Source: Escherichia coli (GTDB lineage Bacteria; Pseudomonadota; Gammaproteobacteria; Enterobacterales; Enterobacteriaceae). Taken from it: 64,000 bases of DNA. The notes beneath the pieces are model-generated. The model searched no databases. It was not told where the DNA came from and worked only from the letters and a program-made list of their open reading frames with translations. The translations under genes and the position numbers were made by a program. Location of the stretch: assembly GCF_041886205.1 (NCBI RefSeq), contig NZ_CP169029.1, one strand, 5' to 3'. Of the stretch, positions 44,955 through 45,619 are shown piece by piece. Within the stretch, counting starts at the first letter, position 1. Each line of letters opens with the position of its first letter.

Positions 44955-45171
44955 AGGTGTATTGCTCAATCTTCGAACGGGGGGAGGATTGTAGCAGAAT
45001 CGCATTTGAATGTGACCGCGTGTAAGCCGCTAACCGGTTGGCTGCGGATGTTTAAATCAGAGAGAGAAGACCGAAATCGGAGTTCATCGTGAATCCATTA
45101 GACTTAGAAAATATCGGGTCGTAACGTTGTGTTATTACTTTTTCAGAGTTTACTAAGGAGAGGTTTACTCG

Positions 45172-45619
45172 TGGCGATTAATTTCAGCCCTAAGGTTGGT
45201 GAAATACTGGAATGCAACTTTGGTAACTATCCTGTTAGCCAAAATGGACCGTTCAGCACGACGTATTACGATGGCCGCATTCCTCCTGAAATGATAAAAA
45301 ACAGGTTAGTTGTCGTGCTCAACGGAAAAATTAATGGCAACGCATGCATCGTCGTTCCATTATCAACCACTCGCGACCAGACAAGTTAAAACGTGGAATG
45401 CATGTTGAAATAGCCAGTAATGTTATCAATGACCTGCAATTCTTTGATCAGCAGATTCGTTGGGCCAAAGCCGACCTGGTACAACAAGTCAGTCGAAACA
45501 GATTAAACAGAGCAAGGACTTACAGAGGGTATCTTAATCAATGTTTGCCACATGAGTTGGTTGCAGACATACAGAGGGCGGTCATCAAGTCAATCAATGC
45601 CATATCGCTCATAAATTGA
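45172..45619 (+). pseudogene. yifN: Frameshifted PemK/MazF-like toxin-fold gene (yifN-type); two overlapping frames 45129-45389 and 45344-45619
   Basis: Frame A has VAINFSPKVGEILECNFG...VVPLSTTRDQ; frame B continues MHVEIASNVINDLQFFDQQIRWAKADL; the two are in different reading frames, so a 1-nt frameshift lies near 45370-45395. Confidence 0.55.

Follow-up and report, generated by a model that had tools for sequence, protein, structure and literature searches.

Here we report that a conserved small RNA (sRNA) gene lies directly downstream of the yifN pseudogene in Escherichia coli and is strictly co-inherited with yifN. Both lie between rep and ppiC in a 64,000-nt stretch of contig NZ_CP169029.1 (assembly GCF_041886205.1), which we call the window: yifN at 45171..45619 (+ strand) and the sRNA gene, of about 75 nt, at 45651-45725 (+ strand; GUAGCCCAUAGAGGCCCUAAGUUUUCUCCCCUUGAGGGACCUGCGAAGCCCGGAUUUUCCGGGCUUUUGCC...). 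The sRNA has a conserved promoter and terminator, and it is very probably a real gene functionally tied to yifN. The yifN gene of the window is almost certainly a pseudogene of a MazF-fold gene. Such a pseudogene is routine by itself, and this one was already known and annotated; its link to the sRNA appears to be new. A first description of the locus made from the letters alone (the sequence-only reading) had called yifN an orphan, decaying toxin gene. The word orphan does not stand, given an independently transcribed partner immediately downstream, and decaying is overstated, since one deletion is the sole lesion of an otherwise intact allele in a family under strong constraint.

The lead to the RNA came from spurious open reading frames (ORFs) 3' of different yifN homologues, whose similar translations led to a comparison of the nucleotide sequences. 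We modeled the element as a hidden Markov model for nhmmer and then as a covariance model from 28 sequences; the element of the window scores 77.8 bits (nhmmer/covariance model), and both models find exactly one copy in the window. Its sigma-70 promoter (45616..45644, + strand) consists of a -35 hexamer TTGACA at 45616-45621, a 17-nt spacer and a -10 hexamer GATAAT at 45639-45644, matching the consensus at 11 of 12 positions, and the TGA stop codon of yifN sits within the -35 hexamer. A sigma-70-like promoter is present at a fixed distance in 37 of 39 elements, with the -10 box ending 6-7 nt before a conserved 5' G, and its mean score across elements is 9.2 of 12 as against 5.8 +/- 1.1 at random positions. 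The terminator hairpin of the sRNA (45693..45720, + strand; RNAalifold) has 10 pairs, with 98.8% of cells paired; 6 of these pairs show compensatory changes, and none of 500 shuffles equalled it. Transcripts of yifN probably end at this hairpin as well.

Conservation of the sRNA is highest in its 5' 45 nt, which do not vary in E. coli. All 75 transcribed nucleotides are identical between E. coli alleles whose coding sequences differ at a synonymous divergence (dS) of 0.16-0.19, and the sole sampled E. coli variant lies at -2 relative to the transcript start. RNAalifold further proposes two candidate hairpins, hairpin 1 at 45654..45665 (+ strand; stem GCC/GGC, loop CAUAGA) and hairpin 2 at 45677..45689 (+ strand; stem UCCC/GGGA, loop CUUGA), which are alike and are each followed by CCU...AAG, forming an imperfect two-unit repeat. 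The sRNA also contains a conserved single-stranded, pyrimidine-rich linker. The stem of hairpin 1 reads GGC/GCC, CCC/GGG or CGG/CCG in divergent members, and that of hairpin 2 reads UUCC/GGAA, GUCC/GGAC or GCC/GGC in other taxa. On a Glaesserella plasmid the stem CGG/CCG occurs with loops CUUAGA and CAUAGA, and the RNAs of Rubrivivax and Roseateles chitinivorans have three hairpin units. In an unfitted alignment, the stems of the small hairpins are too invariant for significance. Rfam has no family for this sRNA: its only match in the window was rnk_pseudo at 20 bits (gathering threshold 55, E 0.96), and there was none at the element in eight other loci. Tandem Repeats Finder detected no repeats upstream or downstream of yifN.

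One copy of the RNA lies beside every core homologue of yifN (at least about 39% identity) examined, in Gamma- and Betaproteobacteria, on plasmid pCAR1 and on IncF plasmids, and no core locus among those examined has yifN without the RNA. The element is directly 3' of yifN in almost all loci. Shewanella has it in inverted orientation; in Massilia and Herbaspirillum it lies upstream on the opposite strand, past an HTH_36/DnaD-like gene, with two copies in one Herbaspirillum locus. Because of this inversion and relocation, we consider the RNA an independent unit and not a 3' untranslated region (UTR). In E. coli, 4015 genomes carry one copy of the RNA each, in no case annotated; the count for yifN is identical, and the locus lacking yifN has no RNA copy. 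By blastn, 97 plasmid records contain the RNA, about 100 nt 3' of a yifN homologue in every record checked. A scan of metagenomes starting from the RNA employed a loose DNA pattern that gave 120 matches, mostly chance, and had to be filtered with the covariance model before it could be used. Of the first 100 matches the model validated 21, and these coincide exactly with the 21 that have a YifN ORF upstream on the same strand, its end 35-71 nt away. The RNA is kept where yifN is frameshifted (the window), truncated (locus L060) or fragmentary (locus L063).

The element is absent beside distant YifN-like genes (27-35% identity) of Alphaproteobacteria and one planctomycete. In the same place, these genes are followed by another conserved RNA, which has several hairpins and a terminator (GUAGUGCGCCUCAAGUCCAC...ACCAAGCC...). 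We observed this alpha-type RNA about 30-150 nt after the ORF in loci L062, L068, L072, L073 and L075, and also in L064, L067, L069-L071, L078 and L080.

An sRNA at this position has been detected before. Romero et al. (2014; PMC4681348) reported a new sRNA of E. coli MG1655 "downstream of yifN" on the same strand, identified by RNA-seq, a transcription start site and a northern blot, the abundance of which varies with the growth medium. By its stated location, it corresponds to the RNA predicted here. The sRNA is absent from the annotation of NC_000913.3, and we found no paper connecting it to yifN or to toxin-antitoxin biology. An MG1655 line propagated for 1000 generations in simulated microgravity carries a point mutation between ppiC and yifN, at -121/+78 (PMC5460176). 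Judged by these distances (about 45697), the mutation would lie within the sRNA at the base of the terminator stem.

The yifN pseudogene of the window was delimited from its ORFs, alignments, the NC_000913.3 annotation, its match to Pfam PF02452 and its MazF fold. As the sequence-only reading had it, two overlapping ORFs in different frames are present on the + strand (45129..45389 and 45344..45619), the gene is positioned between rep and ppiC, and it corresponds to the yifN pseudogene of K-12, named yifN' in PMC4340650. The gene order is rep (- strand, start near 44954), yifN, ppiC (45818-46099, + strand) and ilvC (- strand). In NC_000913.3 this interval is listed as pseudogene yifN (b3777). 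A comparison of the window with MG1655 gave 19 mismatches in 1601 nt, all of them in rep and ppiC, and zero across 44863-45867; the window allele is the K-12 yifN pseudogene, with the same position, the same sequence and the same 1-nt deletion. The reading start at 45129 was not correct: 45129-45170 is only a mechanical ORF extension, and the gene begins at GTG 45171, in agreement with the NCBI Prokaryotic Genome Annotation Pipeline (PGAP), 7 nt downstream of a Shine-Dalgarno sequence read from the DNA (AAGGAGAGG, 45155-45163, + strand) and at the point where all homologues begin with M-A-I-N-F. The N-terminal frame (45171-45389, + strand) closes at a premature TAA, and the C-terminal part, in the -1 frame, spans 45380 to the TGA stop codon (45617-45619, + strand). 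The break, previously estimated near 45370-45395, was placed by alignment with intact alleles at 45379..45380 (+ strand), where one T of these alleles is absent between both bases: the window reads CGCGACCA^GACAAG, and strains 7784, 2012C-4221 and CB6837 read CGCGACCATGACAAG. This T is the only length difference of yifN from the intact alleles of these three E. coli strains, and the repaired YifN has 149 amino acids from GTG 45171.

One might suppose that the frame break is a sequencing error, which the sequence-only reading had left open, or a programmed frameshift by which full-length YifN is still made; a single -1 shift between 45371 and 45389 would indeed restore the frame. The 60-nt context with the deletion is, however, 100% identical in 1223 independently assembled complete E. 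coli genomes, so that sequencing error is excluded and the deletion is a real allele. The gene is also a pseudogene in the curated MG1655 record, and the site lies outside any homopolymer and offers no X XXY YYZ slippery heptamer. We regard this explanation as practically eliminated. An apparent translation initiation at yifN in a Ribo-RET paper was discarded as a typographical error, because the figure legend reads yjfN.

The repaired protein is PemK/MazF-like, as had been proposed from its sequence: it matches Pfam PF02452 (PemK_toxin) with an E value of 1.1e-10, residues 38-141 aligning with model positions 15-108. NCBIfam and PADLOC gave no match each for YifN, PHROGs gave one family of unknown function, and a search of PDB sequences, with either the single YifN sequence or a 63-sequence profile, returned only chance-level matches (DarA, YbaK). 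An AlphaFold model built from the 63-sequence alignment has a predicted local distance difference test score (pLDDT) of 73.7, with a low-confidence loop at 21-42. The top 50 Foldseek matches of this model are all MazF-type toxins (MazF, MoxT, YdcE), and the modeled fold is an SH3-like barrel of the MazF/Kid/CcdB type. YifN is about 40 residues longer than MazF, PemK or Kid, mainly by a low-confidence insert of about 17 residues in the beta1-beta2 loop. Sixteen columns are invariant in the 63 homologues, including E40, K43, R45, P63, S65 and R111-L112. At about 15% identity, R45 corresponds in the alignment to MazF R29/R25, E40 to the loop Glu and S65 to T52; in alignments with MazF, Kid and ChpBK, too, R45 falls on the catalytic Arg, S65 on the catalytic Thr and E40 on the loop Glu, as approximate assignments. 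Comparisons of the YifN profile with the single MazF sequence are too weak as evidence alone. Taken as a model, YifN is a MazF/PemK-fold protein and a predicted sequence-specific endoribonuclease. We found no paper with experimental data on any member of the YifN family.

Two observations on the protein may be added here. The intact O157-type allele (WP_000996692.1; locus L002, 1622-2071) has Phe in place of a widely conserved Cys59, and also A101T. A recurrent weak match (E about 1), probably due to chance, pairs residues 81-123 of the repaired YifN with residues 41-86 of phage P1 DarA (PDB 9ukm); it covers the YifN motif RWAKADLVQQVS..RL and is seen with the single sequence and the family profile alike.

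Where it is intact, yifN appears to be functional. Divergent E. coli alleles, compared with one another and with Superficieibacter, give a ratio of nonsynonymous to synonymous substitution rates (dN/dS) of 0.03-0.07, which indicates strong purifying selection. The family is compact, with 528 YifN-like clusters at E <= 1e-3, 146 at E <= 1e-10 and 30 at E <= 1e-30.

We scanned the window for ORFs of at least 20 amino acids around yifN and clustered every ORF of at least 40 amino acids within 500 nt of 42 homologues. Upstream of the window yifN there are only + strand ORFs of 22 and 28 amino acids with GTG or TTG starts, and no antitoxin candidate. This bears out the earlier statement that no small upstream ORF could encode an antitoxin; the spacer evolves fast, differing by about 11% between alleles. 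In the 42 loci no protein family is common beyond close relatives, and no conserved antitoxin was found. A comparison with orthologs had been suggested to see whether intact versions exist and whether an antitoxin gene accompanies them: intact versions are present in other E. coli and other Enterobacterales, and no ORF family is kept beside them across genera. A ParDE-like pair (locus L056) and a HigA-like ORF (locus L062) are unrelated neighbours, not YifN antitoxins. The "type II toxin-antitoxin system" in the PGAP name of yifN does not agree with these loci, in which no adjacent, co-transcribed gene for a protein antitoxin was found.

The yifN locus is present in 4015 of 5426 complete E. 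coli genomes, and the K-12 deletion in at least 1223, or 30% of carriers. The yifN islet (44958..45803) comprises the entire rep-ppiC spacer, and E. coli without yifN have an unrelated 86-nt spacer instead; this empty site occurs in about 1441 of 5425 genomes. The promoter regions of rep and ppiC differ between the islet-bearing and empty-site haplotypes. Truncated yifN genes in Shigella point to further independent inactivations. Beyond E. coli, Superficieibacter retains the order rep-yifN-ppiC, and homologues are found in Serratia, Photorhabdus, Xenorhabdus, Pantoea, Rahnella, Pseudomonas, Shewanella, Legionellaceae, Roseateles, Herbaspirillum and Xanthomonas. They also occur on 134 plasmids, including pCAR1 and IncF plasmids, and in blocks resembling integrative and conjugative elements (ICEs).

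Several neighbours of these homologues are of interest. On pHN61, a 6.3-kb Glaesserella plasmid, the yifN homologue begins 3 nt after a primase gene (locus L018, 503-2340), and the homologues of Massilia and Herbaspirillum begin 11-19 nt after the end of an HTH_36/DnaD_N replication-initiator-like gene (loci L054, 2406-2981, and L057, 2459-2989); these neighbours may link yifN homologues to replicon control. Two Pseudomonas loci (L034, 1980-2181; L050, 6337-6416) have a C4 antisense RNA, an a1/b1 target motif and isrK-like matches about 1 kb away, and these indicate a P1-type immunity or ICE context. The gene ssb is found a few hundred nucleotides downstream, on the opposite strand, in Xenorhabdus (locus L030, 3788-4249, - strand) and Pseudomonas (locus L034, 3791-4318, - strand); as the sole cross-genus neighbour of yifN, it suggests mobile-element cargo. 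In Vibrio prophages of the Vinavirales, a YifN-like gene of 27% identity stands at the end of the element, directly after a LexA/S24-type repressor gene (locus L020, 12088-13132).

The interpretation that we favour, and hold tentatively, is that the locus is a two-gene module of a type III-like toxin and an RNA antitoxin, the toxin being dead in the window strain. The first gene, yifN, would encode a MazF-fold putative endoribonuclease, inactivated in the window by the single-base deletion, and the second an sRNA that has a strong sigma-70 promoter of its own, ends in a terminator and would act as antitoxin or regulatory partner. It is plausible, and we put this more cautiously, that the sRNA neutralises YifN by direct binding. 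Its two small hairpins (three in some taxa), with C-W-U-N-G-A loops, would then fill the RNA-binding sites of the YifN dimer as pseudo-substrates. If RNA synthesis stopped, for example because a phage shut it off or because the plasmid or ICE with the module was lost, the RNA would be degraded, and the YifN thus released could cleave cellular RNA. In the window the presumed toxin half is dead and the RNA half intact, which fits the order of decay expected if an antitoxin cannot be lost before its toxin. A further and more doubtful step is to see here a new class of RNA antitoxin, in which a PemK/MazF-family toxin would for the first time be controlled by a small RNA instead of a protein, and by one that is located downstream and independently transcribed. 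On the same reading, and with the same reserve, about three quarters of E. coli genomes would possess the module, which would also occur on IncF and IncP-7 plasmids and in ICEs throughout the Proteobacteria, and the distant YifN-like proteins of Alphaproteobacteria and Planctomycetes would be accompanied by an analogous but different downstream RNA.

The pair resembles each of several known systems in part. Like the toxins of the type II systems MazF, PemK and Kid, YifN matches PF02452 and has a MazF-type fold, but in no context examined does its family have an adjacent antitoxin of the MazE/PemI type. As in type III systems, a noncoding RNA gene stands beside a toxin-like gene and is inherited with it. 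Type III toxins share a MazF-like fold; however, YifN belongs to Pfam PemK and not to ToxN/AbiQ, CptN or TenpN, the toxins of ToxIN, CptIN and TenpIN. Moreover, the type III RNA is upstream and co-transcribed with the toxin gene ahead of a leaky terminator, whereas the YifN-linked RNA is downstream with its own promoter. The latter has short hairpins and no detectable tandem repeat; type III RNA units are reported by Blower et al. (2012) to be pseudoknot repeats of 34-45 nt. In type I systems with a separate antitoxin promoter, such as tisB/istR-1 and dinQ/agrB, an own-promoter sRNA gene likewise adjoins the toxin gene; type I toxins are, however, small hydrophobic peptides and their sRNAs are complementary to the toxin mRNA, whereas YifN is a 149-amino acid MazF-fold protein and no complementarity was found. 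The K-12 yifN' and the sRNA of Romero et al. (2014) are the same items as the pair in the window and have been treated as unrelated in the literature.

A number of points speak against a toxin-antitoxin module. Toxicity, RNase activity and RNA binding of YifN are putative, PADLOC and NCBIfam do not recognise the protein, and at about 15% identity to MazF the assignment of catalytic residues is approximate. No known type III system has this layout, with a downstream RNA that has its own promoter and two to three short imperfect units. The small hairpins are supported chiefly by a model-fitted alignment and by a by-eye reading of divergent sequences, and in the unfitted alignment an alternative long hairpin, from single-sequence prediction, scores similarly to the two small ones. 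Finally, about 27% of E. coli genomes lack yifN and at least 23% have it in broken form, so the intact gene is dispensable.

YifN might instead be a non-toxic RNA-binding or RNA-processing protein that forms a ribonucleoprotein with the sRNA as substrate, guide or scaffold, with a role in mobile elements such as replication control or defence. The co-inheritance data suit such a role as they suit an antitoxin. It would also agree with the homologues placed right after replication genes (the primase gene of pHN61, the HTH_36/DnaD_N genes of Massilia and Herbaspirillum) or in plasmid and ICE blocks of small genes, and with the persistence of yifN in many chromosomes without a protein antitoxin. 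The residues that align with the catalytic ones of MazF are invariant, however, which fits an active nuclease, and repeated independent inactivation with the RNA kept suits a harmful protein better; overall we consider a non-toxic YifN rather unlikely. We give less credence to the sRNA being a base-pairing regulator, be it a type I-like antisense RNA acting on yifN translation or a trans-acting RNA with other targets. Its own promoter and intrinsic terminator are those of a classical sRNA, the single-stranded pyrimidine-rich linker is conserved, and its abundance depends on the medium (PMC4681348). Yet RNAduplex comparisons of the sRNA with yifN from -90 to +45 in 17 taxa gave z values of -1.7 to +1.7 and no consistent site, so that significant complementarity to the 5' UTR and start of yifN is lacking in these species. 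The short U-tail (UUUUG or UUCUG) is atypical of Hfq-dependent sRNAs, and strict linkage to one protein family on plasmids, in ICEs and on chromosomes would be unexpected for a general trans regulator.

That yifN is a solitary decaying toxin gene and the element merely its terminator, its 3' UTR or the promoter of the next gene is largely refuted and, in our view, highly improbable. It would account for the missing protein antitoxin, and the terminator of the element could be used by read-through transcripts from yifN. Against this, the most conserved 45 nt lie 5' of the terminator and do not vary in E. coli, the element is preceded by a conserved promoter of its own, and it is inverted in Shewanella and on the other strand upstream in Massilia and Herbaspirillum. 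The downstream genes also differ by genus, and a discrete sRNA is seen on northern blots (PMC4681348).

The label "type II toxin-antitoxin system PemK/MazF family toxin", attached to yifN in thousands of genomes, is probably wrong, the protein antitoxin that defines such systems being absent in every context examined. If the sRNA is the antitoxin, RNA-mediated control would reach the best-studied toxin superfamily, in a layout invisible to current finders of toxin-antitoxin and defence systems, which look for a neighbouring ORF or upstream repeats. It would also give a function to an orphan E. coli sRNA known from northern blots. The intact, frameshifted and empty yifN alleles within a single species provide a natural experiment.

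The surroundings of the islet differ from K-12 more than the islet itself. The 5' end of rep (44636-44862) has 17 mismatches in 227 nt (7.5%) relative to MG1655, and there are more in ppiC and ilvC (45868-47191). Diverged flanks around a K-12-identical yifN islet and sRNA look like a recombination mosaic or a common islet in different backgrounds. Between the sRNA and ppiC we observed an imperfect direct duplication of 44 nt (45739-45782 and 45783-45826; TCCCTGACTGACAATTA... and TCGCCGCCTGACAATTA...) that reaches into the start of ppiC, and at this duplication strain CB6837 is 47 nt shorter.
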